A DNA stretch of 64,000 nt from Minisyncoccia bacterium (GTDB lineage: Bacteria; Patescibacteriota; Minisyncoccia; Phycocordibacterales; UBA9973), in assembly GCA_049287305.1 (NCBI GenBank), contig JBAQFO010000012.1, positions 89,768 to 153,767 on the forward strand, in the 5' to 3' direction. Positions 26,610 to 50,475 of the stretch are shown piece by piece. Below the pieces are notes generated by a model that did no database searches, had not been told where the DNA came from, and saw only the letters and a list, made by a program, of their open reading frames with translations. A program made the translations under genes and the position numbers. Numbering within the stretch: position 1 is the stretch's first letter; the number at the start of each line of letters is the position of its first letter.

Positions 26610-28544
26610 ATGAATTCAATCATCAGAAAAATAATCTTGGTTTTCATTTTTATATTGCCTTTTATAATTTTCCCATATACACCATATTCAATGGTGTTTT
26701 CAAAATCTCTTTTTTTAGAGGGTGTTACTCTCGTTATTGGTGTTCTTTGGATAATGGGCAAATTATTTAAAACAGAAACAGAAACAGAAAAAATTTCTAG
26801 AAATATCACCCTCTTTGTATTTGGAGTTTATGTTTTTTCTCTTTTAATTTCTGCTCTTAGTAGTTTTGTTCCCGGACTTTCATTTTGGGGAACCTTGGAC
26901 CATGGGACCGGAGCTGTTTTTATGCTGTGTTTATTCCTTTTTTCTGTCATTACCAGTTCGGTGTTTAAAAAGATAGAAGATTGGTACACACTTTTTACAA
27001 CTTTTGTGATTTCAGGAATTATTTTCACCTCGGGAACTTTTTTATCAGAAATGGGGATGAATTTTTTTCCCACTATAACGATCAATGCTTCAGGAGGTTT
27101 TCTTGTTGGCAACTCATCTTGGGCGGGAATTTATCTTGCTTTTGTTTTTTTTATAAGCCTAGGACTTACATTTTCACCACAAAACAAAAGTCATAGAGTT
27201 ATTGGTTTTTTGGGTTTAATCTTTACATTTTTTAACCCAATTATTACTGGCTTTATAATTCCGGCCCCTGATCAGTCTTTTCGGCTCATTGGTTTAGCTC
27301 GAGCATCATTATACTCTATTTTTGCTGGTACTAGTTTTTTTGTTCTTTATTTGTTTTTTAGAAAAATAACATCTATAAAGTGGAGAAAGATATGTATAGG
27401 AAGTTTTATTACGATTTTGGTTGCAGTATCTTTGTTTGTAGTAATCAGCCCAGGTGTGTTTCGTCAGGGCATATCTGAAACAGCCGGTCCAAATAGATTG
27501 ATCTTTTGGGATATTGCAGTTTCTAGTTTCAAAGAACATCCAGTTCTGGGGTGGGGTGGTGATACTTATCAGTTTGCATATGCGAAATATTTTAACCCAA
27601 TTATTACTTCTCCAGGTTATTCTCCAGAATATTGGGCAGATCGTGCACATAGTATATATTTTGACGAACTTCACGCTGGAGGTTTTATTGGTTTTATTTT
27701 ACTTATGTTTTTGTATGGAATAATTTTATTTGGTCTTTTACGTAATGGAATAAAACAAAATGATGAAAATAATATTTTGTTTATGGCTTTGGCGGCTGGG
27801 TTAATCTCTTTTTTGATACAAGGGCTGTTGTTGTTTCAGACTATTGTTGGTTGGGTGGTTGTGTCTATAGTTATTGCTTTTGTTGCTAATTTTTGTTTTA
27901 TGGATAGAAATGTAATTGATACTAAGATTGAGAAGAATAAAAAAAGAAATAAAGACAGTGATAATACTTTTCGTAATTTGTTTTCAGTAGTTGTTATAGT
28001 GATTTTTGGATTTTTATTTTACTATGTAATAATTGTGCCTTATCGTGTTGCTAATATGTTGGCTAGATTTCCGACTGAGTCTTATAGTAAAAGGTTAGAG
28101 CTTTATAAAGAAATAGATAATGCTTATATAGGAAATACCACAGATTTAGGAAATATTTTTTTACCATATCATATTAGACTTAGGCAAATATTGAAAAAAG
28201 GACTCAAGGATGAAGAAAAAAAATTAATGATAAACGAAGCCAAAGAAATTATTAGAATTTTGGATAATGGTTTAAAAAAGCAAGATTACAAAGAGCTGAA
28301 AATTTTGATGGGACAAGCAGGATTTTACTCAGTAGTTATAGCGTTAACTGACGGACAGGAAAGACAAGCTTATTATGATCAAAGTCTGTTTTATGTGGAA
28401 AAAATGAAGCTAGCTTCTCCTCAAAGCCCGACACCAGAAATAGCCAAAGCCCTGCTAGACATTTCCCTCAAATATGGCGAAGAAGGTCTGGATCTTTTAA
28501 ATTTGGATAAAGAAAAAGCTATAAAAGAAAGTAATAATAATTAA
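26610..28544 (+). CDS. O-antigen ligase/polymerase family (Wzy_C-like) membrane protein with a soluble C-terminal extension
   Basis: More than ten TM helices and a central periplasmic loop pattern (WGGDTYQF...YWADRAHSIYFDELHAGGFIG). Confidence 0.5.
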   Translation: MNSIIRKIILVFIFILPFIIFPYTPYSMVFSKSLFLEGVTLVIGVLWIMGKLFKTETETEKISRNITLFVFGVYVFSLLISALSSFVPGLSFWGTLDHGTGAVFMLCLFLFSVITSSVFKKIEDWYTLFTTFVISGIIFTSGTFLSEMGMNFFPTITINASGGFLVGNSSWAGIYLAFVFFISLGLTFSPQNKSHRVIGFLGLIFTFFNPIITGFIIPAPDQSFRLIGLARASLYSIFAGTSFFVLYLFFRKITSIKWRKICIGSFITILVAVSLFVVISPGVFRQGISETAGPNRLIFWDIAVSSFKEHPVLGWGGDTYQFAYAKYFNPIITSPGYSPEYWADRAHSIYFDELHAGGFIGFILLMFLYGIILFGLLRNGIKQNDENNILFMALAAGLISFLIQGLLLFQTIVGWVVVSIVIAFVANFCFMDRNVIDTKIEKNKKRNKDSDNTFRNLFSVVVIVIFGFLFYYVIIVPYRVANMLARFPTESYSKRLELYKEIDNAYIGNTTDLGNIFLPYHIRLRQILKKGLKDEEKKLMINEAKEIIRILDNGLKKQDYKELKILMGQAGFYSVVIALTDGQERQAYYDQSLFYVEKMKLASPQSPTPEIAKALLDISLKYGEEGLDLLNLDKEKAIKESNNN

Positions 28545-28547
28545 TTT

Positions 28548-29450
28548 ATGGAAAAAATAATTGTAACAGGTGGAGCGGGGTTTATAGGTTCACATATTGT
28601 AGATGCTCTTATTGAGGAAGGATACGAAGTGCATGTCGTAGACAATATGTCAGCTGGGAGAAAAGAAAATATAAACCCAAAAGCAGTTTTACATATAGTA
28701 GATATAAGAGAAAAAGAAAAGCTGATCCCGATATTTACAAATGCAAAATATGTATTTCATGAAGCAGCATTTCCGCAAGTTCAGTATTCCATAGAGAATC
28801 CCGTTGAAACTAACGCGATTAACGTAGAAGGTACTTTAAATATTTTAGAGGTTTCTAGGATAAATAAGGTTAAGAGGGTAATTTTTGCTTCTTCTTCTGC
28901 TGTATATGGTGACCAAGATATATTACCCATAACCGAAAGCATGGAAGCGAGTCCACTTTCTCCATATGGCGCACAGAAATACATAGGTGAAGTTTATATG
29001 AAACTTTATGCGCAGATTTATGGAGTAGAGACTATCTCTCTTCGGTATTTTAATGTGTATGGACCTAGGCAGAGCGCAAGTGGTGCCTACGCGTCGGCGA
29101 TTCCTAAATTTATAGAATTTCGGCAGAAGAACGAACCACTTTCTATCACCGGAGACGGCGAACAGACTAGAGATTTTGTAAATGTTAAAGATATAGTTTC
29201 TGCCAACATTTTGGCCATGAAAGGGGATAAGGTAGGAAAAGGGGAAGTGTTAAATATCGGAGGAAATAATCAATACTCTATCAATTACATTGCAAAACTG
29301 GTGGGAGGAGAAGTTTCTTATATTCCTCCTCGAATAGAACCTAGAAATACCCAAGCAGGAATATCAAAGGCTAAGGAGTTCTTAAATTGGGAACCACGTG
29401 TTGTCCTGGAGGAAGGCATAGAAGAATTAAAGAAGTATAACAATATTTAA
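28548..29450 (+). CDS. NAD-dependent sugar epimerase/dehydratase (UDP-hexose 4-epimerase-like)
   Basis: VTGGAGFIGSH Rossmann motif and extended SDR features. Confidence 0.8.
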   Translation: MEKIIVTGGAGFIGSHIVDALIEEGYEVHVVDNMSAGRKENINPKAVLHIVDIREKEKLIPIFTNAKYVFHEAAFPQVQYSIENPVETNAINVEGTLNILEVSRINKVKRVIFASSSAVYGDQDILPITESMEASPLSPYGAQKYIGEVYMKLYAQIYGVETISLRYFNVYGPRQSASGAYASAIPKFIEFRQKNEPLSITGDGEQTRDFVNVKDIVSANILAMKGDKVGKGEVLNIGGNNQYSINYIAKLVGGEVSYIPPRIEPRNTQAGISKAKEFLNWEPRVVLEEGIEELKKYNNI

Positions 29451-29456
29451 CATGTC

Positions 29457-29734
29457 TCCCGTTAGAGATCACTTATGTTTTATTACACATATACTTTAAA
29501 AAGTAAGAAAGATGGCAAAATTTATACAGGATATACGCAAGACCTACGGAAGCGCCCGAGTGAGCATAATAAAGGTTTATCTACATATACTAAAGGACGA
29601 GGCCCATTTATTTTGATATACTACGAAGGGTGCTTATTAAAAGATAAAGCTAGGTCGAGAGAATTATATTTAAAATCAGGAATGGGCAAGCGTTATCTAA
29701 AAAATAGATTAGGCGCTTCCTACCTCTAACGGGA
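29457..29734. repeat. perfect 11-bp inverted repeats TCCCGTTAGAG (29457-29467) and CTCTAACGGGA (29724-29734) bracketing GIY-YIG copy 1
   Basis: Read from the sequence. The right repeat overlaps the GIY-YIG stop and the gmd ATG. Confidence 0.7.
29475..29729 (+). CDS. small stand-alone GIY-YIG nuclease-superfamily protein (YhbQ/UPF0213-like), copy 1
   Basis: [28 protein letters not shown]...ELYLK, with GIY-YIG-like YTGYT and a conserved Arg and Glu. About 85 aa. Paralogous to copies 2 and 3. Confidence 0.75.
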
Positions 29735-30795
29735 TGAAAGATAAAAAAAGGGCTTTAATTATAGGTATTACAGGGCAGGATGGGTCATATTTGGCTGAAT
29801 TTTTGCTAGAAAAAGGCTACGAGGTTCATGGAATGATAAGGCGTTCTTCCAGCTTCAACACCGAAAGATTGGACAAAATATATGAAGATCCGCACGTGGA
29901 CAATCGTCATCTAGTTCTTCATTATGGAGATCTGTCTGATTCCAACAGTATAAATAATATGGTTAATAAAAGTAAACCGGACGAGATTTATAACTTGGGT
30001 GCGCAGAGTCACGTAAGAGTAAGTTTTGATATTCCCGAATATACTGCTGACATAGATGCGCTTGGAACATTACGATTGCTAGATGTTATAAAGGAACAAA
30101 GTTATCCAATAAAATTTTATCAAGCGGGGTCAAGTGAAATGTTTGGGAAAGTTTTAGAGACTCCGCAAAAAGAAACAACGCCATTCAACCCCCAGAGTCC
30201 CTATGGTTGTGCCAAAGTATTTTCGCATATGATTTGCGTGAATTATCGCGAGGCTTATAATATGTTTATTTGCAATGGTATACTTTTTAACCATGAATCT
30301 CCGAGGAGGGGGCGGACTTTTGTTACTAAAAAGGTGGTGGAAGGTCTCGCAGATATAAAACTAGGGAAAAAAGAAAAAATATTTTTGGGAAACCTAGATG
30401 CCAAACGGGATTGGGGTTATGCCAAGGACTATGTGCGGGCTATGTGGCTGATGCTCCAGCAAGATACTCCTGATGATTACGTGATAGCAACAGGAGAGAC
30501 ACATTCCGTCCGTGAGTTCGTGGAATATGCGGCATCTTTGGTTGGTTATAAAATTGTTTGGCAAGGGTCAGGATTGGAAGAAGTTGGTATAGATGAAAAA
30601 TCAGGAAAAGTCCTCATCAGTATAGATGAAAATTATTACAGGCCGTCGGAAGTAGATGTATTGTTGGGAGACAATACAAAAGCAAAAGAGAAATTAAACT
30701 GGGATACCAATGTAAAATTTAAAGACCTTATAGATTTAATGGTAAAAGAAGAATTTGAAGAGCGGGGACTTCCCAGTAAAGATTATATAAAATAA
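29734..30795 (+). CDS. gmd: GDP-mannose 4,6-dehydratase
   Basis: [27 protein letters not shown] and Gmd-specific motifs. Confidence 0.92.
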
Positions 30796-30797
30796 TT

Positions 30798-31730
30798 ATG
30801 AACAAAGATGCAAAAATATATATTGCGGGGCATAATGGGCTAGTTGGTTCTGCTATTGTGCGGGAATTGCAAAAGAACGGCTACTCAAATCTTTTAACAA
30901 GAACTCGCGTGGAACTGGACCTGACTAGGCAAGATCTAGTAGAAGGGTTTTTTAACAAAGAGAAACCGGATTATGTTTTTCTGGCTGCGGCAAAAGTCGG
31001 GGGAATCCTAGCCAACGATACACATCCAGCAGATTTTATCAGAGATAACTTGATGATAGAAACGAATATTATAGACTCTGCTTATAAAAACAAAGTTAAG
31101 AAACTTTTATTTCTGGGGAGTTCTTGTATATATCCTAGAAATGCTCCTCAGCCGATGAAAGAAGAATACCTACTAACAGGCGAGCTTGAACCTACCAACA
31201 AGGCTTATGCTACAGGGAAAATAGCTGGTATAGTCATGTGTCAGGCTTACAACAAGCAGTATGGGGCAAATTTTATAAGTGTAATGCCGACCAATCTGTA
31301 TGGCGAGGGTGACAATTTTGACTTGGATAATTCGCATGTACTTCCGGCAATGATAAGAAAGTTCAATGATGCTAAGAAAAATAATGCACCGGAAGTAACT
31401 TTATGGGGGAGTGGTAGCCCGAAAAGAGAATTTCTATATGTAGATGATTTAGCCAATGCTTGCGTATATCTCATGAATAATTATAATAATTCTGAAATAT
31501 TAAACATCGGCACCGGAGAAGATTTATCCATTCTAGAATTAGCTAATTTAGTAAAAGAAGTTGTAGGATATGAAGGGAGTATTGTGTGGGATTCATCAAA
31601 GCCGGACGGCACCCCTCGCAAGTTGCTTGATGTGTCTAAAATACGCTCTTTAGGCTGGAAACACAGCACTAGCCTGAAAGAGGGTATAAAACACACTTAC
31701 GAGTGGTATAAAGCTAACCAAAGCCTATAA
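30798..31730 (+). CDS. fcl: GDP-L-fucose synthase (GDP-4-keto-6-deoxymannose 3,5-epimerase/4-reductase)
   Basis: [14 protein letters not shown] pattern; adjacent to gmd. Confidence 0.9.
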
Positions 31731-31731: not shown

Positions 31732-32577
31732 ATGATAACTGTAAGATTAAAAGGGGGTTTGGGTAATCAGATGTTTCAATATGCCTTAGGGCGTGCTTTG
31801 TCTATTAAAAATAACACAACTCTCGGACTAGATATCGGTTTTTATGATATGAATCTAAACCCTAAGAGGCAATACGACCTGGAGGTGTTTAATATTGCCG
31901 GAAAAGTTCTGGAGCAGAAAGAAATTCCTTTTTTATACAGATTTTGTCATAAAAGCAAAATTTTGGATAAAATTACAAGATATGGATTTAAAGAAAAATC
32001 TTTTGATTTTGATCCGCAGATTTTTTGTCGTGGATCAAGCTTATACATAGATGGATACTGGCAAAGTCCGAAATACTTTGAAGATTTTGAGGATGAAATT
32101 AGAAAAGATTTTACTTTAAAAAACCCACCAGTTCAAAACATAGAAGACCTTGCGAAAGAAATAGAGCATATAAATTCGGTGTGCGTTCATGTGCGCAGAG
32201 GGGATTATGTAGGAAATAAAAATCATGAAATTGTAGATAATGAATATTATATAAAAGGCATTGAGTATATAAAAAATCATGCGTCAGTAGATAAAATATA
32301 TGTTTTTTCTGATGACATAGAATGGTGTAAAAATAGTTTAAAATTTGAATTTTCTACGGTATTTGTGGATAGCGTATACGCAGGAGAAAAAGGAGAAGGG
32401 CATATGTTTTTAATGAGTAAGTGTAAAAATTTTATAATTGCGAACAGCTCCTTTTCTTGGTGGGCTGCTTGGCTTTCTAACAATAAAGAGAAAATTGTAA
32501 TTTGTCCCAAACAATGGTTTCCTGATAAATCTATATACACAAACGATTTAATACCAAAAGAGTGGGTAAGAATATGA
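31732..32577 (+). CDS. alpha-1,2-fucosyltransferase (GT11 family)
   Basis: GT11 motifs GGLGNQMFQYA, HVRRGDY and ANSSFSWWAAW. Confidence 0.8.
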   Translation: MITVRLKGGLGNQMFQYALGRALSIKNNTTLGLDIGFYDMNLNPKRQYDLEVFNIAGKVLEQKEIPFLYRFCHKSKILDKITRYGFKEKSFDFDPQIFCRGSSLYIDGYWQSPKYFEDFEDEIRKDFTLKNPPVQNIEDLAKEIEHINSVCVHVRRGDYVGNKNHEIVDNEYYIKGIEYIKNHASVDKIYVFSDDIEWCKNSLKFEFSTVFVDSVYAGEKGEGHMFLMSKCKNFIIANSSFSWWAAWLSNNKEKIVICPKQWFPDKSIYTNDLIPKEWVRI

Positions 32578-32891: not shown

Positions 32892-34232
32892 ATGATAAAT
32901 ATAATCAATAAAATTAAAAGTTTAACACTCGAGCAGATAAACAAAAACCTAGTTTTTTTGGCTATTATCGCCTTAATTTACCGAAAAGGTAATTTTTACA
33001 ATACTTTTGTTCCAAAGCCATTTGAAATAATTCTCGTACTGATTATCATTCTTACATTTGTGCATTTACTAATCAATAAGAAATTTAAAGCTTTTTTCTC
33101 TTCAATTGATAAAAAAATTTGGATAGCATTGTCGTGCCTCCTGGTATCTGTTTTTGTGGGCTGGGCTGTAGCTGTATTTTTTAAGAATGTGCCGATAAAT
33201 TTCAATGTTATTTTAGAGTTTGGGAATTTTGTAATTTCTTTGGTGATATTTGTATTGGTTTTATTTTACACAAAAAATGATAAAATATTTGCCCAAAAAT
33301 ATTTATACGCATTACTTTTGCCGGCTGTATATACGATTTTTGTGTTATTCACCGAAGGGGCTAATTACTTTAACTTGGAAAACAACGGCACATTTCTTGG
33401 GCTTACAATCAATCCGAATATAATTTCTAAAATATTGCTTATTCCTGCGTTATTCTTTATAACGCATTCTTTGTTTAAACTTCAAAACAGGTGGCTGAGA
33501 ATTGGATATATTGCTATTTCTTGCGCTATGGTTGCTTTATTGTTTTGGGTTGCATCCAGGGGAGGATTGGTTTCTTTGGCGATTTCAATGATGTTCGTGT
33601 GGCTTGTTTTTTCTTTACATCATTTTAATTGGAAAAAACTATTTTATAGTGGTGGACTTCTCTTCATTATATTTTTAATTGGATTTCTTATAACTCCGCA
33701 AACTGGGAAGCAGAGGGTTATCCTTCGAGCTTTATACCCAAGTGGATCTGATTATTCTAGTTATGTCGAAGTTATAAATAAACCGGTTGACGATATTGTA
33801 TCTAAATTTATTACTGATAAGTCAGATAAGCATGTTTTTATTTATGCTAATGGAGAAAATCGTTTTAAAATTTGGCCATTTTATTTAAAGTACATATTGA
33901 TGAACCCACTTGGTATAGGGCCAAATACTCACTTGAGCTTTAGCTTAAAGGATAATGTTGGAGAATATATAAATTCAGGTCCACATAATACTTTCCTACA
34001 AATTTGGCTATGGGGAGGACTGCTAGGGATACTGAGTTTCTTATATATCTTTATCAATGCATTTAAAAACCTAAGATTACAATTAAAATCAGAATTTAAT
34101 CCTACTGCCTTGGCATTGCTTGGAGTTCTATTTGCTGTTAGTATTTCTGTCATGTTTGATGACAGCTTATCATTTTTTTGGTTTTTTATAATTTTAGCTT
34201 TGACATTGAGATATGAAAATACCAGTAGTTAG
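32892..34232 (+). CDS. O-antigen polymerase/ligase-like (Wzy family) membrane protein
   Basis: About 11 TM helices; the WVASRGGLVSLAISMMF pattern is typical of the Wzy_C region. Confidence 0.45.
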   Translation: MINIINKIKSLTLEQINKNLVFLAIIALIYRKGNFYNTFVPKPFEIILVLIIILTFVHLLINKKFKAFFSSIDKKIWIALSCLLVSVFVGWAVAVFFKNVPINFNVILEFGNFVISLVIFVLVLFYTKNDKIFAQKYLYALLLPAVYTIFVLFTEGANYFNLENNGTFLGLTINPNIISKILLIPALFFITHSLFKLQNRWLRIGYIAISCAMVALLFWVASRGGLVSLAISMMFVWLVFSLHHFNWKKLFYSGGLLFIIFLIGFLITPQTGKQRVILRALYPSGSDYSSYVEVINKPVDDIVSKFITDKSDKHVFIYANGENRFKIWPFYLKYILMNPLGIGPNTHLSFSLKDNVGEYINSGPHNTFLQIWLWGGLLGILSFLYIFINAFKNLRLQLKSEFNPTALALLGVLFAVSISVMFDDSLSFFWFFIILALTLRYENTSS

Positions 34233-35056: not shown

Positions 35057-35878
35057 CTATTTACCTTCCAAGATTGATTTTTCTTCTTGGGAAAGTGGTT
35101 GATCATATAGAGATTTTTCTTGATGTGAAACCTGGATACTGTTCAATAATTTTCGTGGCCAATAAAATAATCGTGTTTGTTCATACCACCCGAAGTAAGG
35201 TCCGACGGATCCACCAAAATATACAGTAAACGTATTGATGCATACATCAGAAGGCATAAGGTTGTTGTAGCGTTTTTTTATACTAGAAGAAAATTGCTTA
35301 AGTGGTTCCTCAATATTATTAAAATGTTCTAAGATAAATTTTTTTCTCATAATAAAACCATCACCAAACGCGCGCATGTCATCGTATTTTGAATATACAA
35401 TTTTATTTTTTCTAAAAAAGTTTTTCAACCTTCGCTTGAGTCGTCCTCTCCAGTATCCTTCACCACCATTTAAATCGTATTTAAGATTTGTGATTGGTTT
35501 AAATACATGCACGTCATCCGCCAAGAGGATAATATAATCTTCTTTTATTTTTTGCGCAGCCTCATATATTCTTTTGACATATAGCTTTACTCCTGCTTCG
35601 TCAGAAAAATACACGCTGTGATTACTATTTGATTGAAAGCTGTGAGTGTAATTGCAATTAAAAAATCGGGCTACGTTCTCCATATTATCTCCATTATTAG
35701 AAACCAGCACCACTGTACTATTCGGGTATATTTTACGAAAATGTTGCAAAGCGTGAATAAGAGCCTTCGGTTGTTTGTAGCACTGATAAAAAGCACCAAT
35801 TGTAGGATTTTCTTTCTTTCTGATGGTTAGCATGTTCTGAATAAAATTCATTTTATTTGATTTTATCACACCTTGCAT
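35057..35878 (-). CDS. hypothetical protein (possible glycan-modifying enzyme); divergently oriented paralog of 35932..36801
   Basis: Shares AFYQC(Y/F)xQPK..., FNC(N/K)Y, (V/L)YFGG(S/T)(V/I)GPY and a C-terminal LSxEExxI(L/F)(E/L)GK with the neighbouring gene. Confidence 0.45.
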   Translation of the reverse strand: MQGVIKSNKMNFIQNMLTIRKKENPTIGAFYQCYKQPKALIHALQHFRKIYPNSTVVLVSNNGDNMENVARFFNCNYTHSFQSNSNHSVYFSDEAGVKLYVKRIYEAAQKIKEDYIILLADDVHVFKPITNLKYDLNGGEGYWRGRLKRRLKNFFRKNKIVYSKYDDMRAFGDGFIMRKKFILEHFNNIEEPLKQFSSSIKKRYNNLMPSDVCINTFTVYFGGSVGPYFGWYEQTRLFYWPRKLLNSIQVSHQEKSLYDQPLSQEEKSILEGK

Positions 35879-35931
35879 GGTATTGTAAATGTATGATTTT
35901 CTTAAGAAGAGCCTTTGGTAGGTTAAAGTTC

Positions 35932-36801
35932 ATGGGCAGATGTTATTTTTTAAGTTTTTTTGCTATTGTGGATTATTTTAAATCAAATCGGGTTTATAAC
36001 GAACCTTCTGTCTGCGCTTTCTATCAATGCTTTAATCAGCCCAAATGTGTTATTGCTACCATTAAATCATTTCGAGAATTTTATCCCAATAGTTCAGTTT
36101 ATTTGTTTAGCAACAAGGGACTTGATATGAGTCATATCGCCTCTCATTTCAATTGTAAGTATGAATATCTTTATAGTGGCAATGATTCCGGTTTCTGGTT
36201 CTTATCTAAAGAAGAAGTATTATCGTGGGTGAAAAGATTGTTGTTTGTCGCACAGAACTCCACAGAGGATTTCGTGATGATATTAGAAGACGACGCTAGG
36301 ATGTATGGAAAAATTAAAAAATTAAAATTTGATTTTAATGGTATCAAACCATGCGAACAACTCAGAGAAAAAATCACCGCCTTCTTAAAGCTTCAGAATA
36401 AATCTATTCCAAATTATATCAATAATATATATTATGGTGGTTGTGGAGGGACTCTAATTAATCGCAATTTTATAGTTAACAATTTTTCAAATCAAGAAAA
36501 ATTAAGCTCGGCTTTAGACGCAGTTCTTCCGTATGCACAAGAACATTTCGGAACACTACCGGCTGATGCCTTGATAACTATGCTTGTTCTGTATTTTGGC
36601 GGTACTATTGGGCCATATGCAGGTTTTGCAGAAGTTGGCAGTTCTGGTTTTATGGGCTTTATTGATAATTTCGTTGAAATGTCACATTGGAAGTACTACT
36701 TTAGTCCCTTTTTAGGTAGAATTGAGGTTGTTCATAACGACAAAAGTTTCTACAATGTTCTGTTATCCGAGGAAGAGAATAAAATATTTTTGGGAAAATA
36801 A
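35932..36801 (+). CDS. hypothetical protein; paralog of 35057..35878 (start placed at MGRCYFL to avoid head-to-head overlap)
   Basis: Same conserved blocks as its divergent neighbour. The track ORF from 35857 would overlap the divergent gene start. Confidence 0.45.
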   Translation: MGRCYFLSFFAIVDYFKSNRVYNEPSVCAFYQCFNQPKCVIATIKSFREFYPNSSVYLFSNKGLDMSHIASHFNCKYEYLYSGNDSGFWFLSKEEVLSWVKRLLFVAQNSTEDFVMILEDDARMYGKIKKLKFDFNGIKPCEQLREKITAFLKLQNKSIPNYINNIYYGGCGGTLINRNFIVNNFSNQEKLSSALDAVLPYAQEHFGTLPADALITMLVLYFGGTIGPYAGFAEVGSSGFMGFIDNFVEMSHWKYYFSPFLGRIEVVHNDKSFYNVLLSEEENKIFLGK

Positions 36802-36805: not shown

Positions 36806-37861
36806 TTATTGCATAAACAATGTGCTATATTTTTCTCTGTTGTCTAGAATATATTTCGGTAGTTCTGATTCATCTTTCCAAAATTTAATATGTCTTCCGC
36901 GAATATCCTTATTTCCCAAGATTGTTGCTTCTATTTTTAGTTTTATGTCTTTGGTATTAATTTCTTGATGACTGTATGATTCAAGTTTTTGTTTAACCAT
37001 ATTAGATCCACCCTGAAATGAAAAATGCCATCCACCATCTCTAAGCATCGTGAATCTGTTTTTATTTGGAGTTCTGATGTGATTGATTGAATTATTTTTA
37101 ATATTTTTATATTTTGTAGCTATGGTCCCCACCCATCCTCTCCAATTTTCATTTGAGCGATTATTGAGATGATATATGTATGCAGTTTGTTTTAATTTAA
37201 AAATATCATTTCTGGAATAATCTATTGTTATCTCTGGATTCCAGATTTCATCCAAATCTGATATAAAACAAATATCATCATCTTTTAATCCTGTCAGCAC
37301 TCTTTGCATAGTTTCTTTTTGATAAAACTCCCTTAACCACTGTAATTGTTTTTTGTCCGGGACATTATCGGTCGATAAAGTAAAGTTTAGTATTTCTTTA
37401 TCTGTAGTGCTTAAATTTTTATTTAAAAGTCGATTTCGGATATCGGCCTCATTTTTAGGTGTATCCCTTACTGCATAGTGAATTATTTTATGTTCCCATT
37501 TTTTAAAAAGGTGCTTGTTTTCTTCAAAATATAATTGTTTAGGTAAGCCAGTAAATGTTTCTGTGGCTTCAACAATCACAAAATAATCTACGTATTGATC
37601 TAGAATATTCAATCGTATTTCTAAAAGCTCCAATTCGTTAAAAAAAAGAAAAACATCATAAATTTTTATATTTTTTCTATAAATCTTTATATCTTCTTTG
37701 GATAACCACAGTTTCTCTCTTCTAGACTCTTCTAGAATAAGGAATGGCTCTTTTAGATAATCAATAAAATTTCTTAGATCATTGAGAAAAAATTTGGCTA
37801 TATTTTTTAGTGATAAGGGAATACGTTTTTTTATTTTTGTTACAATTCTTTCAAAAATCAT
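36806..37861 (-). CDS. putative glycosyltransferase (GT17-like, MGAT3-type fold); low confidence
   Basis: DVFLFFNELELLEIRLNILDQYVDYFVIVEATETFTG resembles the N-terminal signature of the Glyco_transf_17 family. Confidence 0.4.
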   Translation of the reverse strand: MIFERIVTKIKKRIPLSLKNIAKFFLNDLRNFIDYLKEPFLILEESRREKLWLSKEDIKIYRKNIKIYDVFLFFNELELLEIRLNILDQYVDYFVIVEATETFTGLPKQLYFEENKHLFKKWEHKIIHYAVRDTPKNEADIRNRLLNKNLSTTDKEILNFTLSTDNVPDKKQLQWLREFYQKETMQRVLTGLKDDDICFISDLDEIWNPEITIDYSRNDIFKLKQTAYIYHLNNRSNENWRGWVGTIATKYKNIKNNSINHIRTPNKNRFTMLRDGGWHFSFQGGSNMVKQKLESYSHQEINTKDIKLKIEATILGNKDIRGRHIKFWKDESELPKYILDNREKYSTLFMQ

Positions 37862-40544: not shown

Positions 40545-41111
40545 TTATTTACTTTCATTAAGCATAAAAGGGGAGTCAAACTCACTTAAATTTTGTAGCT
40601 CTTGATCTCGTTTTGAAACTATTGGATTTGCAACTCGCCAGTCCATACCGAAAGAATTAAAGTGGATGCCGTCTTCATTTTTTTCTGATCTTGCTTTTTC
40701 TTGTAGATATATGACACAAGAATTGTCTTCTAGGGACAGAAATCCATGCGCGCACCCCTTGGGCATGTAAATTATTTTGTGATTTTTTTTGGACAATTCT
40801 AAGGAAGAACATTGACCATATGTCGGAGAATTTTTTCGCAGATCTATTACTACGTCTAAGATAGATCCATGAGTGACATATACAAGCTTGGCATGATCTG
40901 ATTCATTTTTCTGGAAGTGCATGCCCCTAATTACGTTCTTGTTTGATATAGAATAATAATTCTCTTCAAAGCTTGAAATCAGTCCATTTTTTATAAAAAA
41001 ATCTTTATTGAAAGATTTTACAAGAGAACCTCGATCATCTTCAAAGGTGTCGGGTTCTATGATATATACTCCGGATAATTTTGTGTCTACGATTTTCATA
41101 TTTTTGTCCAA
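40545..41111 (-). CDS. NDP-4-keto-6-deoxyhexose 3,5-epimerase (RmlC-like cupin)
   Basis: RmlC fold motifs (IIEPDTFEDDRGSLVKSF, HGFL). Confidence 0.75.
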   Translation of the reverse strand: MDKNMKIVDTKLSGVYIIEPDTFEDDRGSLVKSFNKDFFIKNGLISSFEENYYSISNKNVIRGMHFQKNESDHAKLVYVTHGSILDVVIDLRKNSPTYGQCSSLELSKKNHKIIYMPKGCAHGFLSLEDNSCVIYLQEKARSEKNEDGIHFNSFGMDWRVANPIVSKRDQELQNLSEFDSPFMLNESK

Positions 41112-42196
41112 TCAATATTTAACCTCTTTGCATTTTCTATGTAATCTTTCAAATCTTTTTCGCTTAAAACAATATTATTTTCATAATAACTTTTATACCA
41201 ATTAATTGTTTTTGATATTGTGTCTTCGTATTCCCATACACTCTGCCATTTTAATAACGAACGTGCTTTTGAGGAATCTAATTTTAAAATATTTGCTTCA
41301 TGTAAATTATCAGCATTTGTTTTTAAATCAATTTTTATTGCACCCCAGTATTTTTGAGCATGTTCAATGATTTTTTTTACTGATAGTATAGATTCTTCCT
41401 TGGGTCCAAAGTTCCAATTGTCAGCATATTCTTTTTCCCCATTCAATAGTTTTGCTCCGAGAGATAAATACCCACTAATCGGTTCTAGAACGTGTTGCCA
41501 TGGGCGTACTGAGTCAGGATTTCGAATCACGGACCCATTACCTGCTACTGTTGATTTTATTATATCTGGGATGAGTCTATCTTGCGCCCAGTCTCCGCCA
41601 CCTATAACATTACCTGCTCGCACATTAGCTAGAAGGGTAGTGTGAGTCTTGCCATATTCGTCTAGAGAAAAGAATGATTTTCTGTATGAATTTGAAACTA
41701 TTTCAGCTGCACCCTTGGAAGCACTATAAGGATCATTTCCCCCCATCGGGTCGCCTTCAGTGTATGGCTTCCCGTCTTCTTTATTCTCATAACACTTATC
41801 GCTAGTAATATTTACTATAACTTTTACAGTTTTTAATTTCCTACAACTTTCTAAGATATTTATCGTTCCAAGTATGTTTGTCTCAAATGTTTCTGCAGGA
41901 ATGGTATAAGATCTTCTGACTAGTGCTTGAGCGGCCATATGAAAAATTATTTCGGGATTGTGCTCTTTGATTATTTCAAAAAGTTTATTTTTGTCTAATA
42001 CATCCCCTTTTACGGAAGTCATTTTCAAGTTTAATAATTCAAAATGATTAGGCTCTGAGGGGATATCTATCGAATAACCTATAACCTCTGCTCCAAGCTT
42101 AGTAAGCCAGAGAGCGAGCCAAGAACCTTTAAACCCAGTATGCCCGGTTATTAAAACTTTCTTTCCTTTGTAAATATTATTAAAGAGATTATCCAT
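41096..42196 (-). CDS. rfbG: CDP-glucose 4,6-dehydratase
   Basis: KKVLITGHTGFKGSWLALWL and YSASK active-site residues. Confidence 0.85.
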   Translation of the reverse strand: MDNLFNNIYKGKKVLITGHTGFKGSWLALWLTKLGAEVIGYSIDIPSEPNHFELLNLKMTSVKGDVLDKNKLFEIIKEHNPEIIFHMAAQALVRRSYTIPAETFETNILGTINILESCRKLKTVKVIVNITSDKCYENKEDGKPYTEGDPMGGNDPYSASKGAAEIVSNSYRKSFFSLDEYGKTHTTLLANVRAGNVIGGGDWAQDRLIPDIIKSTVAGNGSVIRNPDSVRPWQHVLEPISGYLSLGAKLLNGEKEYADNWNFGPKEESILSVKKIIEHAQKYWGAIKIDLKTNADNLHEANILKLDSSKARSLLKWQSVWEYEDTISKTINWYKSYYENNIVLSEKDLKDYIENAKRLNIDWTKI

Positions 42197-42914
42197 TTTT
42201 TTTATCCCCCAAATTTTTCCAGAAAGCCTTACCTTCTGCCCATATTTTATTTAAATGTTTTAGATCTCTTTCTGTGTCCACACATTCCCAATCACCTAAA
42301 TGTTTGTAAACCATAATTTGTCCTTGTTCCGCCAATTTATCAAAAGCCCCGTACTCTAAATCGCAATTTTCGTCTTCCGTTAGGTGTTCTAACAGTTTCT
42401 TATTAAATACAATAAAACCTCCCGAGATAAGTCCGGAAGAAGCTTGTGGTTTTTCTTTAAATGAAAGCAGTTTACCATCTTTTTCAATTAATTCTCCAAA
42501 TCGAGATGGTGGGCGAACTCCAGTTATTGTTAACATATTTCCGTGAGCTTTATGGAATTTCACAAGTTCATGTATGTTAATATTCGCTACTCCGTCTCCG
42601 TAGGTCAACATGTGAGTATCATCATCCTGCAAATATTTTTCTAGTCTTTTTAATCTACCCCCCTTTAGGGTGTTTAGCCCTGTATCAACTAAGGTAACAT
42701 TCCAGCCATGACTAGTATCTTTGAAATGTTCTTCAATGACCCCTTTTTTATATCCAAGTGCTAGGATAAAATCTTTGTATCCATGATCTGCATATATTTT
42801 CATGATATGTTTTATGATTGGTTCATCGCCAATACGTACCATGGGTTTTGGCATATCACTAGTAATACTTCCCAAACGCGTACCATATCCTCCAGCTAAA
42901 ATAATGACTTTCAT
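42189..42914 (-). CDS. rfbF: glucose-1-phosphate cytidylyltransferase
   Basis: MKVIILAGGYGTRLGSITSDMPKPMV. Confidence 0.85.
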   Translation of the reverse strand: MKVIILAGGYGTRLGSITSDMPKPMVRIGDEPIIKHIMKIYADHGYKDFILALGYKKGVIEEHFKDTSHGWNVTLVDTGLNTLKGGRLKRLEKYLQDDDTHMLTYGDGVANINIHELVKFHKAHGNMLTITGVRPPSRFGELIEKDGKLLSFKEKPQASSGLISGGFIVFNKKLLEHLTEDENCDLEYGAFDKLAEQGQIMVYKHLGDWECVDTERDLKHLNKIWAEGKAFWKNLGDKKNG

Positions 42915-42924: not shown

Positions 42925-44142
42925 TTATTTATATTTTGATAAAAATTCTACAAATTTTTCTTTTAAGTATTTTAACTGTTCTTTTTTTAGGCCATGATGT
43001 GAGGCAACCACGAAAGCATTTGCCATTATATTTTCTGTATTTGGATATGTTTTTTGAGCTAAACGGTGTGGGATTTTTTCATATCCTGGTTGTTTTAAAA
43101 TATTGCCAGTGAATACTGGACGAGTTTGTATGTTGTTGTTTTCTAGAAAAGTTATTAATTCTAGGCGAGTAAATGGTGCATCTTTATTGATTATGAAAGG
43201 GAAGGCCAGCCAGATGGTTTCTGTATTTGGAGTTTGATTAGATAGAGTGAAATATTTGGTGTGTTGGCTGAAAAATTTATATAAATCAGCGAAATTTTCT
43301 TTGCGAGCCTTGGCAAATTTTGGAAGTTTTTTTAGTTGCTCTAAAGCGAAAGCAGAGGAGAGCTCGAGTGGCAAGAAATTGTATCCAATTTCACTAAATA
43401 TAAATTTGTTATCATAAGGTATTCCGGAAAGTTTACTTTTAAATCTATTTGTTAAAAGTTCTGAATTTGCTTTTTCTCCAAATAGAGATGACTGTCTTCC
43501 CCAGCCACGCAAAACTACTAATTGATCAACCCATTTTTTGTCATTTACACAGACCATTCCGCCACCTCCGGCGCCATTGATAATATGCGAGCCGTAAAAG
43601 CTGGTAGTGGTGATGTGGGAATATTTTCCTGTTGGATTGTTTTTATATTTACCTCCAAGAGTATCACAAGAATCTTCGATGAAATATAAATTATGTTTCT
43701 TGGCAATTTTGGCTAATCTTTCTAGGTCTGGAATATTGCCCATCAGTGAGGGAATCATCAAGGCTTTTGTTTTCTTTGTTATTGATTTTTCTAATTGATA
43801 AATATTAATCAAAAATGTGTTTGGATCTACATCTATAAAAACAGGAACTAAACCTTTTTGAACTATTGGAGCTACTGTCGTTGCAAATGTAAGTATCGGG
43901 GTGATGACCTCGCTCCCTTTGGGTAAATTTAAAATTTCAAAAGCAAGGAGATTTGCAGAAGATCCAGAATTTACCATAACTCCATATTTTTTACCAAAAA
44001 GTTTTGCTATTTTTGATTCGAATTCCTTTGTTTTATCACCTAAGGCGGTGTTACCCTCTAGAATTTTTACAACCGCATTGATCTCTTCTTTTCCATGAAC
44101 AGAAAATCCATAGGGAACTCGGATATTATTTTTTTTCATCAA
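42925..44142 (-). CDS. rfbH: DegT/DnrJ/EryC1-family enzyme, CDP-4-keto-6-deoxyglucose 3-dehydrase (E1)-like
   Basis: The SFYGSHII segment has His where aminotransferases carry the PLP-binding Lys, as in E1 dehydrases. Confidence 0.65.
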   Translation of the reverse strand: MMKKNNIRVPYGFSVHGKEEINAVVKILEGNTALGDKTKEFESKIAKLFGKKYGVMVNSGSSANLLAFEILNLPKGSEVITPILTFATTVAPIVQKGLVPVFIDVDPNTFLINIYQLEKSITKKTKALMIPSLMGNIPDLERLAKIAKKHNLYFIEDSCDTLGGKYKNNPTGKYSHITTTSFYGSHIINGAGGGGMVCVNDKKWVDQLVVLRGWGRQSSLFGEKANSELLTNRFKSKLSGIPYDNKFIFSEIGYNFLPLELSSAFALEQLKKLPKFAKARKENFADLYKFFSQHTKYFTLSNQTPNTETIWLAFPFIINKDAPFTRLELITFLENNNIQTRPVFTGNILKQPGYEKIPHRLAQKTYPNTENIMANAFVVASHHGLKKEQLKYLKEKFVEFLSKYK

Positions 44143-44355: not shown

Positions 44356-45360
44356 TTACTTTTCGTGTTTATTGCAATCTAAGTATTTTTTTGAAATGAT
44401 TTTCTGCCACCAAGGCTTGTTTTCTTCATACCATTTAATGGTCTTTTGTATTCCTTCTTCAAAAGATACAGAAGGGCTCCATCCTAATTCTCGGGTAATT
44501 TTTGAATGATCCATGGCATAACGCATATCGTGCCCCCTACGATCTTCTACGAAAGTTTGTAAACTTTTCGGTTTATTTAGCAGGTTCAATATGGTATCAG
44601 TAATTTCAAGTCCATTTTTCTCTGAATCTCCCCCGATGCAATACGTCTCTCCTATTTTGCCTTTGTGGATTATTAAATCAAGAGCTTCACAATGATCTAT
44701 GACATACAAATAGTCTCGCACAGCTTTACCTTTACCATAAACAGGCAAAGGTTTGTTTTCAAAAGCATTAGTTATAAAAAGTGGGATTATTTTTTCCGGA
44801 AACTGGAACGGGCCATAGTTATTTGTACAGTTTGAAATTGTGGCAGGGAAATTGTATGTTTCAATGAAAGCCCTGACTAGGTGATCTGAGCCAGCCTTTG
44901 ATGCGGAGTAAGGGGACCTAGGAGAATACGGAGTATTCTCCTTAAATTTTTCTCCCGGTTTGTCGAGCGACAAGGTGCCGAAAACTTCGTCGGTGGATAC
45001 GTGGTGAAATCTTTTTAAATTAAACTTTCTTGCAGTTTCTAACAACACCAGTGTGCCTTTGACATTGGTTTCGACAAAATCTTCTGGGTTCTCAATTGAC
45101 CTATCCACGTGGGACTCGGCGGCAAAATGAACCACCAAATCACATCCCGTCATTGCTTGCATAACTATTTTTCTATCGCAAATGTCGCCGTGAATAAATG
45201 TATAATTTGGGTTATTCTCTATGCTTTTTAAATTGTCTAAATTTCCAGCATAGGTTAGTTTGTCTAGGTTTACTACCTCGTAGGTAGGGTATTTATTCAT
45301 CATATAGATGATAAAGTTTGAACCTATGAATCCAGCTCCACCCGTGACTAGAATTTTCAT
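44356..45360 (-). CDS. rfbB: dTDP-glucose 4,6-dehydratase
   Basis: MKILVTGGAGFIGSNF and YSASK. The start ATG at 45358-45360 overlaps the stop of GIY-YIG copy 3. The longer track ORF to 45465 is that upstream gene read in another frame. Confidence 0.9.
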   Translation of the reverse strand: MKILVTGGAGFIGSNFIIYMMNKYPTYEVVNLDKLTYAGNLDNLKSIENNPNYTFIHGDICDRKIVMQAMTGCDLVVHFAAESHVDRSIENPEDFVETNVKGTLVLLETARKFNLKRFHHVSTDEVFGTLSLDKPGEKFKENTPYSPRSPYSASKAGSDHLVRAFIETYNFPATISNCTNNYGPFQFPEKIIPLFITNAFENKPLPVYGKGKAVRDYLYVIDHCEALDLIIHKGKIGETYCIGGDSEKNGLEITDTILNLLNKPKSLQTFVEDRRGHDMRYAMDHSKITRELGWSPSVSFEEGIQKTIKWYEENKPWWQKIISKKYLDCNKHEK

Positions 45361-45635: not shown

Positions 45636-46181
45636 CTAAAAGTTAATATCGCAATCTTTTAGAAAGGGAGCGTCTTTGTCTCTATCTATTAATAGGGGAT
45701 TCATGTCTCCCCAATCTATGCCAATATCTGGATCGTCAAAACGGATACTTCTTTCGGATTGCTTATCGTAATCATTGTCAACCTTGTATATGAATTCGGT
45801 ATTGTCTACCAAAGTTAAAAAACCATGAGCAAAACCACGAGGTATATAAAGCTGTTTTTTATTTTCTTCGGTTAATTCTATAGAATACCACTCTTTATAT
45901 GTGGGGGAATTTTTTCTTAAATCCACGGCTACATCTAGGACGGCTCCTCGCGTACAGCTGACTAGTTTGGCTTGAGAGAAAGGAGCATTCTGTAAATGAA
46001 GCCCCCTGAGGGTTCCCTTCATTTTACTAAAAGAACGATTGTCTTGGATAAAGGCAGAACTTATTCCAGCTTCCGCTAGCCTCTTCTGATTGTAAGATTC
46101 AAAAAACCACCCACGGGTGTCTTCAAATATATCCGGTTCAATCACTAAAACATCTTTTATTTTTGTTGGAGCAATTTTCAT
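45636..46181 (-). CDS. rfbC: dTDP-4-dehydrorhamnose 3,5-epimerase
   Basis: RmlC motifs (VLVIEPDIFEDTRGWFFE, HGFL). Confidence 0.9.
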   Translation of the reverse strand: MKIAPTKIKDVLVIEPDIFEDTRGWFFESYNQKRLAEAGISSAFIQDNRSFSKMKGTLRGLHLQNAPFSQAKLVSCTRGAVLDVAVDLRKNSPTYKEWYSIELTEENKKQLYIPRGFAHGFLTLVDNTEFIYKVDNDYDKQSERSIRFDDPDIGIDWGDMNPLLIDRDKDAPFLKDCDINF

Positions 46182-48602: not shown

Positions 48603-48604
48603 AT

Positions 48605-49909
48605 TTAATAGGTGAACACCTTCGCAATTGTTTTAAGAACAATCAAGATATCAAAAAAGATGGTTCTGTTTTTTATATAATAAAAATCATATCTTAATTT
48701 TTCCCTAGCATCTTCTACGGAAGACCCGTATTTGTAATTTACCTGAGCCCAGCCCGTCAATCCTGCTTTCACGGAATGTCTTAAATCATAATATAAGATA
48801 TCTTTTTTTAATACATTTATAAATTCTGGTCTTTCGGGACGAGGGCCAACAAAAGAAATATCACCCCTTAGAATATTTACTAATTGCGGAATTTCATCTA
48901 TGTGTGTTTCTCTCATAAATCGTCCAATCGGTGTTATCCTAGGATCCCTTCTGTTGTTTTCTGTCCAAACAGCGCCATTCTTTTCTGCATCAACATACAT
49001 AGATCTAAATTTATAAATAGTAAACTCTGTGTCATTCAGACTAATTCTCTTGTGTTTAAATAATACTGGCCCCCTTGATGTTATTTTAATTAGAATAGGA
49101 ATAATTATAAAAAGAGGTAAGAAAACAATCATTAATACGAAAGATAGACTCGCATCCAAAGCTCTTTTTGTAAAGTTGAAAATAGCTCTATTTTTGCTTA
49201 AATAATCCACAATTTCTTCCTTTTCTATTTTTTCAGTTGGAACTTTTTGAAATATTTCTGCATAAAAATTATTTATTGTGTATGCGAAAATTCCTCTCTT
49301 GATAAGAGTATAAATCTTATCAAATTCTTTTTCTGAAATTGAATTTATGACGACTAGGTCTGGATTTAGATTTATTATTTCATTTAAATCAAAATTGTTT
49401 GTTTCTTTTATAATTTCATAACCAATATTTTGATTTTGTTTTAACTCTGAGACCAAACTATTTTCTCCCTCGCTTATAATAATTATTTTCCTGTTAACCC
49501 CTTTTTTTACGAAATATCTCTTAATCAGGATTCTTAAATAAAAATCACTGATTCCAAAGATTGCTGTGAATAAAACCAAATTTGTTTTCGGAGTTAATTT
49601 AAAAAAATCTCCAAACATATAAAAGATCAAAGCAGAGAGAGCGAATGACACAGCCAAGCTTTTTATAAAAGAGTTGGTGAATTCAGCTGTGTTTTTGTTA
49701 AATCTAAAAGAGTATAAATTGAATATATAAAAAATAAGTAAAAACAAAAGGATGATAATAGAAAAGGGAAGAGCGTGGGCAGTTATTTGAGAATAAAGAT
49801 CACTCCCTCCATACCTTATAAAAAGCATCAAAAAAAGAGCACCAAAAGCGACAATTAAATCAACAATAAAAATAAGAAACATCTTAAATTGTATAAGTAA
49901 ACCCTTCAT
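48605..49909 (-). CDS. undecaprenyl-phosphate sugar phosphotransferase (WbaP/bacterial sugar transferase family)
   Basis: N-terminal TM helices and the conserved C-terminal sugar transferase domain (PRPERPEF-like region, ending DILIVLKTI). Confidence 0.8.
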   Translation of the reverse strand: MKGLLIQFKMFLIFIVDLIVAFGALFLMLFIRYGGSDLYSQITAHALPFSIIILLFLLIFYIFNLYSFRFNKNTAEFTNSFIKSLAVSFALSALIFYMFGDFFKLTPKTNLVLFTAIFGISDFYLRILIKRYFVKKGVNRKIIIISEGENSLVSELKQNQNIGYEIIKETNNFDLNEIINLNPDLVVINSISEKEFDKIYTLIKRGIFAYTINNFYAEIFQKVPTEKIEKEEIVDYLSKNRAIFNFTKRALDASLSFVLMIVFLPLFIIIPILIKITSRGPVLFKHKRISLNDTEFTIYKFRSMYVDAEKNGAVWTENNRRDPRITPIGRFMRETHIDEIPQLVNILRGDISFVGPRPERPEFINVLKKDILYYDLRHSVKAGLTGWAQVNYKYGSSVEDAREKLRYDFYYIKNRTIFFDILIVLKTIAKVFTY

Positions 49910-50021
49910 TTTTTTATTGCCTCAAAAGCATGCCCTGTTGATATATACTATATCAGGTAATGTAGCATAAAAGTGGATTTTTTACAGCTTTATTGTGGAA
50001 TTTAATAGATTGCTAAGTAAT

Positions 50022-50049
50022 TTGTGTTCTTGAAAGAAAGAGGTATAAT
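50022..50049 (+). promoter_or_regulatory. promoter TTGTGT-16-TATAAT placed 6 nt before ATG (leaderless-type)
   Basis: TATAAT at 50044-50049 and ATG at 50056. Confidence 0.4.
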
Positions 50050-50055
50050 TTTCTC

Positions 50056-50475
50056 ATGATAAGAGGATTTACTTGTGGAGCTATGGACTTGTTGCATGCG
50101 GGACATATTTTGATGTTAAAAGAATGTAAAACTCAATGTGATTTTCTTGTAGTGGGGCTACAAACTGATCCAACCATAGATAGACCAGAAAAAAATAAAC
50201 CCATAGAAACGTTAGAGGAGAGATTGATACGTCTAGAAGGATGTAAATACGTGGATGGGGTGGTAACGTATGACACAGAAGAAGATCTTTATCAGCTTCT
50301 TCTAAAACTAAAACCCGACCTTCGTTTTATGGGAGCGGACTGGAAGAGTAAGAAGAATTATTCCAGAGACAAACTTCCTTCTATGCAAGTTATTTACAAC
50401 AGTCGAGACCATGGATACTCTAGTAGTGACTTAAGGAAAAGGATTATGAACAGCCAGAAACCCCACGGGATTTAA
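50056..50475 (+). CDS. cytidylyltransferase-like nucleotidyltransferase (TagD/RfaE-II type)
   Basis: CGAMDLLHAGH (HxGH motif), 139 aa. Confidence 0.75.
   Translation: MIRGFTCGAMDLLHAGHILMLKECKTQCDFLVVGLQTDPTIDRPEKNKPIETLEERLIRLEGCKYVDGVVTYDTEEDLYQLLLKLKPDLRFMGADWKSKKNYSRDKLPSMQVIYNSRDHGYSSSDLRKRIMNSQKPHGI

Follow-up and report, generated by a model that had tools for sequence, protein, structure and literature searches.

A His-type sugar 3-dehydratase homolog without iron-sulfur loop cysteines, encoded beside CDP-glucose genes in a surface-glycan locus of a Minisyncoccia bacterium

The C3 deoxygenation of cytidine diphosphate (CDP) sugars is reviewed as a two-protein process, carried out by the pyridoxamine 5'-phosphate (PMP)/[2Fe-2S] enzyme E1 together with the reductase E3 (PMC8987622; 10.1101/2021.09.04.459008). 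E1 and SpnQ contain a four-cysteine [2Fe-2S] motif that ColD lacks, and E1 depends on E3, an iron-sulfur (Fe-S) flavoprotein (PMC8987622). Fe-S-free His-type dehydratases that work with pyridoxal 5'-phosphate (PLP) and glutamate are established for guanosine diphosphate (GDP) sugars, namely ColD, the GDP-4-keto-6-deoxy-D-mannose 3-dehydratase of the colitose pathway, and the GDP-heptose C3-dehydratases of C. jejuni (PMC8987622, PMC10440746). No characterised Fe-S-free enzyme tied to CDP-sugars was found in the literature, a provisional result given the thin coverage of subscription journals. The protein considered here is a DegT homolog of a Minisyncoccia bacterium, encoded in a surface-glycan locus at positions 26610-50475 of a 64-kb stretch of contig JBAQFO010000012.1 (hereafter the window). 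Minisyncoccia is a class within the phylum Minisyncoccota, which we take to be a lineage of the candidate phyla radiation (CPR)/Patescibacteria.

Genes were called from a listing of open reading frames (ORFs) and from Pfam and NCBIfam scans, with the equivalog or gathering cutoffs as thresholds. The DegT homolog has the DegT/aspartate-aminotransferase fold (PF01041, 260 bits), and Foldseek aligns its AlphaFold2 model (pLDDT 93.8) with E1 (3bcx) at a TM score of 0.89 and with ColD at 0.86. In sequence, the protein comes closest among solved structures to Yersinia E1 (236 bits), with ColD second (198 bits). Of the NCBIfam models, RfbH scores highest, but its 349.9 bits lie below the 423-bit equivalog cutoff. 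His186, in the motif SFYGSH, aligns with His220 of E1, the column in which mutant H220K (3bb8) has Lys. Four Lys-type DegT paralogs from the fetched loci, whose best models are LegC/PseC aminotransferases, likewise have Lys in this column when aligned directly. The exchange of the PLP-binding Lys for His, proposed by an earlier sequence-only reading of the window, is thereby confirmed, with no offset and no retained PLP lysine. Since this substitution marks the sugar 3-dehydratases, the protein is, by its sequence, a His-type sugar 3-dehydratase homolog.

The same reading had called the protein E1-type, a label that, as to mechanism, fails on the cluster ligands, C193, C251, C253 and C261 in E1 numbering. 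The cluster loop reads WGRDCYCAPGCDNTCKKRF in E1 and WGRQSSLFGEKANSELLTNRF in the DegT homolog, which has two cysteines in total and none in this loop; neither it nor any relative examined has the three loop cysteines of the four-Cys motif. Of the ligands, the C193 equivalent is the only one kept, and ColD has it too. The His is invariant in 120 close homologs, which are 73-100% identical and come mostly from CPR or unclassified metagenome-assembled genomes (MAGs), and their equivalents of C251, C253 and C261 are all non-cysteine (120/120). The loop is Cys-free at 80/80 genome loci and 80/80 viral loci of the clade. Of 141 diverse representatives of clusters formed at 50% identity, a single one lacks the His; 61 of those with the His carry at least three loop cysteines, and all but two of these Fe-S-type proteins have Cys at all four E1 ligand positions. 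Most representatives without loop cysteines belong either to a ColD-like group (HGW) or to a large query-like group (TSFY[GA]SH…GG, WGR). In a crude neighbour-joining tree of 134 sequences, the query-like group forms one clade, distinct both from that of ColD and from the Fe-S-bearing grade to which E1 belongs.

The DegT homolog shows different likenesses to the two known types. With E1 (RfbH/DdhC/AscC of Yersinia and Salmonella) it shares the DegT fold, the His for Lys in the same SFYxxH register, the best sequence match and the adjacency of rfbF and rfbG, so that the substrate is presumably the same, CDP-4-keto-6-deoxyglucose. It differs from E1 in its Cys-free loop, its sub-cutoff RfbH score, its separate clade and the lack of a nearby E3 (0/80 relatives). 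ColD and the C. jejuni enzymes resemble it in being His-type, Fe-S-free and without a dedicated reductase, and in the ColD pathway an epimerase and a 4-reductase then yield a 3,6-dideoxy-L-sugar. However, ColD belongs to a different clade (31-32% identity), its motif, SFYSH, places the catalytic His one residue closer to SFY, its hallmark HGW is replaced here by WGR, as in E1, and the gene context here is that of CDP-glucose, not GDP-mannose. Whether the SFY[GA]SH / WGR / Cys-free proteins form a third class of nucleotide-sugar 3-dehydratase, with E1-like ancestry (in the GS subtype also the CDP substrate) and a ColD-like need for only PLP and glutamate, is in our judgement an even bet.

No E3-type protein is encoded in the window, as judged by domain scans and a hidden Markov model (HMM) of E3, so that the earlier statement that none is visible nearby extends to all 64 kb. 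The HMM was built from the E3 proteins of a control set, 80 metagenomic true-E1 loci with enzymes 68-80% identical to Yersinia E1, and replaced a conservative regular-expression detector, which had found E3 in 16/39 long control loci. With the HMM, E3 is found near 28/80 control loci, usually 2-3 kb upstream on the same strand, but near 0/80 clade loci (Fisher p = 3e-10); among loci longer than 12 kb, the counts are 19/39 and 0/63. The lack of E3 thus characterises the enzyme clade as a whole and is no gap that another part of the genome would have to fill, and a missing E3 near the DegT homolog is to be expected.

The genes rfbF and rfbG lie directly downstream of the dehydratase gene. Their earlier assignment stands well above the cutoff for rfbG and with a reservation for rfbF, which scores below it because of a 23-residue internal deletion (Table 1). 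The deletion is an in-frame gap after residue 64, and the protein is otherwise 64% identical to a 258-amino-acid (aa) CPR ortholog; an independent assembly contains an identical 241-aa gene call. The linkage holds for the SFYGSH subtype at large, with an rfbF- or rfbG-type gene within 6 kb at 58/67 loci and both at 46. The SFYASH subtype has neither (0/11 loci), and rmlB-like genes are found instead. A distant CPR genome preserves the order dehydratase, rfbF, rfbG, epimerase, short-chain dehydrogenase/reductase (SDR), GT2, then GT11-like and GT17. Natural fusion proteins pair clade members with RmlC-like epimerase, SDR, RmlD-like reductase or 4,6-dehydratase domains; no E3-like domain occurs among the clade fusions examined. 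The gmd and fcl genes lie ~12 kb from the dehydratase gene, on the other strand and beside a GT11 gene. Action of the dehydratase on a GDP-sugar made by Gmd was rejected on the basis of the operon structure and the clade-wide rfbF/rfbG linkage.

The RmlC-like epimerase and the reductase of the sequence-only reading are both recovered downstream. Together they predict a 3,6-dideoxyhexose of L configuration, which is what the Yersinia asc pathway makes, here without ascD. The dideoxy sugar proposed earlier is accordingly still likely, but as an L-sugar of the ascarylose type and not as abequose, paratose or tyvelose. Compared with the CDP-ascarylose cluster of Yersinia pseudotuberculosis (ascA-F), the cytidylyltransferase, 4,6-dehydratase, 3-dehydratase, epimerase and 4-reductase all have counterparts here, but ascD (E3) has none. 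The ascarylose configuration is putative, since the assignment of the epimerase and the reductase reaches no further than the family.

By analogy with the GDP-sugar enzymes, we propose, with a probability of roughly 0.6, that the DegT homolog works like ColD, with PLP and glutamate, on a CDP-sugar, and gives an ascarylose-type 3,6-dideoxy-L-hexose. CDP-glucose would be supplied by RfbF and converted by RfbG to CDP-4-keto-6-deoxy-D-glucose, from which the His186 enzyme would remove the C3 hydroxyl via a PMP ketimine. The resulting sugar-ene adduct would be hydrolysed rather than reduced, since there is neither a [2Fe-2S] site to act as single-electron acceptor nor an E3 partner, and would release PLP, ammonia and CDP-4-keto-3,6-dideoxyglucose. 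L-glutamate would then regenerate PMP, while the cupin epimerase would invert C5 and the SDR would reduce C4. The predicted product is a CDP-3,6-dideoxy-L-hexose, most simply CDP-ascarylose, which the adjacent GT2 could transfer.

Several points weigh against this proposal. The glutamate-driven step is argued from analogy, and in the crude tree the clade stands outside that of ColD, so that ColD chemistry is not simply inheritable by homology. E3 is likewise missing near 52/80 true-E1 control loci, which makes its absence weak evidence when taken alone, and the search of the organism's own genome covered the 64 kb of the window. RfbF with its 23-residue deletion may be impaired. Finally, the stereochemistry of the final sugar is not readable from sequence.

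Four other explanations have to be weighed against the ColD-like mechanism. In one, the ene-adduct is reduced after all, independently of an Fe-S cluster in the enzyme, by another partner, such as a cassette SDR that uses NAD(P)H or a general flavodoxin/ferredoxin system, as proposed for SpnQ. SpnQ does work with general reductases (PMC8987622), and SDRs adjoin clade members and are fused to some of them. However, SpnQ depends on a [2Fe-2S] cluster of its own as single-electron acceptor (PMC8987622), the clade has no such cluster, and the fused SDRs are RmlD- or 4-reductase-like, as fits reduction of the 4-keto group; this route is unlikely. It is also improbable that the protein is not a 3-dehydratase in vivo but transaminates or is otherwise diverted, with the cassette making a CDP-4-amino-4,6-dideoxy sugar or a CDP-6-deoxy-L-hexose. 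The dehydratase role of the clade is a prediction, and SpnQ without its reductase shows aminotransferase activity with PLP and glutamate, but ColD and E1 show no such activity under similar conditions, according to the same review (PMC8987622). Moreover, the conserved and sometimes fused epimerase and 4-ketoreductase need a 4-keto, not a 4-amino, product, which argues for dehydration rather than transamination.

A classical E1/E3 pair, in which an E3-type Fe-S flavoprotein from another part of the genome supplies the electrons and other ligands hold the cluster, would agree with the best NCBIfam model, with the control loci that have no nearby E3 and with a visible genome of 64 kb. Yet neither of the two cysteines of the protein lies in the cluster loop, the loss is uniform over hundreds of relatives, the model score is sub-cutoff and E3 is found near control but not clade loci, so we consider this very unlikely. 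Least probable of all is decay of the CDP branch, with RfbF inactivated by its deletion, as its low score might suggest, and only fucose and rhamnose-type sugars made, given that all five cassette ORFs are intact, that the dehydratase is highly conserved (73-88% identity to other CPR homologs) and that the 241-aa RfbF call recurs in the independent assembly.

The clade to which the proposed ColD-like dehydratase belongs is widespread. An alignment scan of 185,579 species genomes, with a 10-sequence clade alignment as query, finds members in at least 595 of them. Cultured carriers include Ruegeria, Leisingera, Sphingomonas, Sphingobium, Novosphingobium, Sinorhizobium/Ensifer and Aliiroseovarius, with Ruegeria faecimaris DSM 28009, Sphingobium lactosutens and Ensifer aridi among the species; Legionellales, Bacteroidota, Nitrosopelagicus and DPANN archaea are further carriers. 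Clade members (39-52% identity) are also encoded on at least 586 IMG/VR viral contigs, some of them 100-180 kb long and one a giant-virus MAG; these were found by alignment scan, a single-protein scan of the viral contigs having given none. In each of the 80 viral loci sampled, the His is present, the loop is Cys-free and E3 is absent; in place of rfbF/rfbG, rmlB- or gmd-like genes usually lie nearby. This suggests virus-encoded dideoxy-sugar synthesis.

Two further observations concern relatives of the enzyme. A Vogelbacteria (CPR) contig (L008) encodes two His-type dehydratases ~5 kb apart, at 4269-5468 (+) and 10001-11215 (+), with an fcl homolog nearby; one is ColD-like (motif NGWDRNL) and the other is of the query type, so both Fe-S-free classes can coexist in one CPR genome. 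Long, intein-like inserts ending in HN-C are present exactly within the Fe-S loop of the metagenomic E1-type proteins P0172, P0193, P0195, P0227, P0233 and P0240. P0201 has a long intein-like insertion at the His motif, and the clade member P0129 contains Pfam Hint and intein domains.

The region 26610-50475 is a Wzx/Wzy-dependent heteropolysaccharide locus. It contains a priming phosphoglycosyl transferase (PF02397), a flippase (PF01943), two Wzy_C proteins (PF04932) and about eight glycosyltransferases, and its sugar-nucleotide genes are gmd and fcl, rmlABC and the five-gene cassette of 3-dehydratase, rfbF, rfbG, RmlC-like epimerase and SDR reductase. Nearly every gene that the sequence-only reading named was recovered in place by the Pfam and NCBIfam scans, and the reduced-genome host that it suspected agrees with the source, an NCBI 'Minisyncoccia bacterium' MAG; the heavily glycosylated surface or S-layer that it suggested is, as far as sequence goes, conjectural. 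A plus-strand block (the 644-aa Wzy_C protein, a GalE/TviC-like SDR, gmd, fcl, GT11, the second Wzy_C and GT2) is followed by a minus-strand block, which reads from 49909 to 36806 as Bac_transf, Wzx, rmlA, rmlC, rmlB, DegT homolog, rfbF, rfbG, epimerase, SDR, GT2, GT11-like and GT17; a small CTP_transf_like gene is divergent at 50056 (Table 1). The locus has a lower GC content (30-38%) than its flanks (41-47%) and lies among housekeeping genes (IleRS, MetRS, RecA, FtsK, S6, SSB, EF-P, L10, L7/L12, PurH). No tRNA genes or Rfam matches were found in the window, and promoter and terminator scans were uninformative at the locus borders. Another NCBI 'Minisyncoccia bacterium' MAG, GCA_049303715.1, has the same gene order and a DegT homolog identical except for the start codon; the database copy begins at the ATG after the TTG start. 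As in enteric Wzx/Wzy O-antigen and capsule loci, priming transferase, Wzx, Wzy_C, nucleotide-sugar and glycosyltransferase genes are clustered in DNA with a GC content below that of the flanks. Unlike in those loci, the host is a CPR bacterium, no Wzz is seen in the locus, there are two Wzy_C proteins and three GIY-YIG ORFs are interspersed. Surface-glycan genes are already held to be typical of Patescibacteria (PMC12911398), so the locus as a whole is not novel; it is ordinary, and the enzyme clade is the interesting part.

Table 1. Genes of the surface-glycan locus, in window coordinates, with the matches on which the assignments rest.
Position	Strand	Feature	Basis
26610..28544	+	644-aa polytopic membrane protein, Wzy_C; candidate O-antigen ligase, O-oligosaccharyltransferase or polymerase	PF04932 47 bits
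28548..29450	+	SDR nucleotide-sugar epimerase/reductase, GalE/TviC-like	PF01370 214 bits; GalE model 171, below 262 cutoff
29475..29729	+	GIY-YIG small ORF copy a, 84 aa, just upstream of gmd	phmmer E=1e-31 against copy c
29734..30795	+	gmd, GDP-mannose 4,6-dehydratase	TIGR01472 565 bits, cutoff 415
30798..31730	+	fcl, GDP-L-fucose synthase	NF047922 507 bits, cutoff 500
31732..32577	+	GT11 fucosyltransferase-family glycosyltransferase	PF01531 126 bits
32605..32877	+	GIY-YIG small ORF copy b, 90 aa	PF01541 66 bits; 52% identity to copy c
32892..34232	+	446-aa Wzy_C membrane protein, candidate repeat-unit polymerase	PF04932 45 bits
34213..35046	+	GT2 glycosyltransferase	PF00535 128 bits
35057..35878	-	GT-A-fold glycosyltransferase paralog 1	AlphaFold-model fold
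35857..36801	+	GT-A-fold glycosyltransferase paralog 2, divergent; start probably downstream of TTG	32% identity to paralog 1, E=6e-45
36806..37861	-	GT17-family glycosyltransferase	PF04724 103 bits
37865..38890	-	GT11-like, sub-threshold	PF01531 22 bits, below 23.9 gathering score; 67% identical ortholog in CPR locus L006
38900..39652	-	GT2, directly downstream of dideoxy-sugar genes; candidate dideoxyhexosyltransferase	PF00535 44 bits; same slot in loci L004, L006
39654..40538	-	SDR, candidate NDP-4-keto-3,6-dideoxyhexose 4-reductase (AscF-like role)	PF01370 104 bits; cassette position conserved
40545..41111	-	RmlC-like cupin epimerase (putative AscE-like role, C5 epimerisation)	PF00908 182 bits; TIGR01221 160.5, cutoff 155.75
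41096..42196	-	rfbG, CDP-glucose 4,6-dehydratase	TIGR02622 475 bits, cutoff 278
42189..42914	-	rfbF-like glucose-1-phosphate cytidylyltransferase, 23-residue internal deletion	TIGR02623 255 bits, below 300 cutoff
42925..44142	-	Predicted His-type Fe-S-less NDP-4-keto-6-deoxyhexose 3-dehydratase (DegT homolog, 404 aa), His186 in SFYGSH; NCBI start ATG 44139	
44356..45360	-	rmlB, dTDP-glucose 4,6-dehydratase, 334 aa	TIGR01181 478 bits; 334-aa gene call in comparison locus L001
45360..45629	-	GIY-YIG small ORF copy c, between rmlC and rmlB	
45636..46181	-	rmlC, dTDP-4-dehydrorhamnose 3,5-epimerase	TIGR01221 214 bits
46192..47091	-	rmlA, glucose-1-phosphate thymidylyltransferase	TIGR01207 476 bits
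47151..48602	-	Wzx-type flippase	PF01943 117 bits; PF13440 82 bits
48605..49909	-	Large polyprenyl-phosphate glycosylphosphotransferase (priming)	PF02397 217 bits; TIGR03025 321, cutoff 296; WbaP model 177, below 403
50056..50475	+	Small cytidylyl/adenylyl-transferase-like protein	PF01467 56 bits; TIGR02199 74, TIGR01518 71, both far below cutoffs

The genes gmd, fcl, rmlA, rmlB, rmlC and rfbG all score above their equivalog cutoffs, so that the earlier calls for the fucose and rhamnose genes hold, as do those for two GT2 enzymes, a GT17-like protein, Wzx and two Wzy-like proteins. The claim of three nucleotide-sugar pathways is right as to the genes but overstated as to completeness: no ORF in the window comes near the rmlD cutoff, and the manB/manC genes for GDP-mannose supply are not in the window. 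The SDR at 28548-29450 was considered as the missing RmlD and rejected (rmlD model 49 bits, cutoff 224). For rmlB, a longer 369-aa ORF overlaps GIY-YIG copy c. Of the two GT11 enzymes reported before, the first is secure and the second scores just under the gathering threshold, although it is conserved within the CDP-sugar cassette of CPR relatives. The supposed WbaP is a priming transferase, assigned at family level since it passes TIGR03025 and not the WbaP model, and the TagD-like protein is a small CTP_transf_like protein that is equally RfaE-domain-II-like. Three GIY-YIG ORFs, two GT-A-fold paralogs and the GalE/TviC-like SDR were absent from the earlier inventory. The paralogs, at 35057-36801, have no family match, and an AlphaFold model shows the GT-A glycosyltransferase fold.

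The three GIY-YIG ORFs are paralogs of 84-90 aa, ~50% identical, each co-oriented with its neighbours in an intergenic slot of the glycan locus, and two of them end at or just before the start codon of the next gene. The gmd-fcl-GT11 module has a copy on each side, the third copy sits between rmlC and rmlB, and neither the rest of the window nor any of 160 comparison loci contains one. The ORFs may encode selfish nucleases or mark points at which modules are exchanged.

Elsewhere in the window, large PG_binding_1 proteins flank the glycan locus at 24339-26321, 54700-57048 and 57000-59729 (+), one of them also with PKD/Big domains; they are plausibly cell-surface proteins and possibly targets of glycosylation. 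An IleRS-like ORF of 1190 aa at 2236-5808 (+) carries a histidine-phosphatase (His_Phos_1) domain at residues 524-678 that interrupts the class I synthetase core midway. At 6792-7238 (+), ~35 kb from the dehydratase gene, a small protein gives a weak 34-bit match to PNPOx_N, the pyridoxamine-5'-phosphate-oxidase family, and any link to the dehydratase is putative.

Set against the two-protein view of CDP-sugar C3 deoxygenation, a large clade beside CDP-glucose genes, with neither Fe-S site nor reductase, suggests a simpler, Fe-S-independent route to the same sugars. If so, CDP-3,6-dideoxyhexoses would be made by one enzyme without E1/E3 radical chemistry, and a third dehydratase class would extend widely across CPR bacteria, Proteobacteria, Bacteroidota, archaea and many viruses. 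This would correct a common database label, as clade proteins are often named 'CDP-6-deoxy-D-xylo-4-hexulose-3-dehydrase' or 'E1', and it bears on the origin of the E1, SpnQ and ColD mechanisms. One group that had no active recombinant E1/E3 gave up enzymatic synthesis of CDP-3,6-dideoxy sugars (PMC7851689), a problem that a single-enzyme route could solve. For a CPR organism with few biosynthetic genes, a pathway without an Fe-S cluster or a dedicated reductase fits the economy of the genome, and on the cell surface the dideoxy sugar would form a distinctive epitope, with a bearing on attachment to hosts and on recognition by phages.

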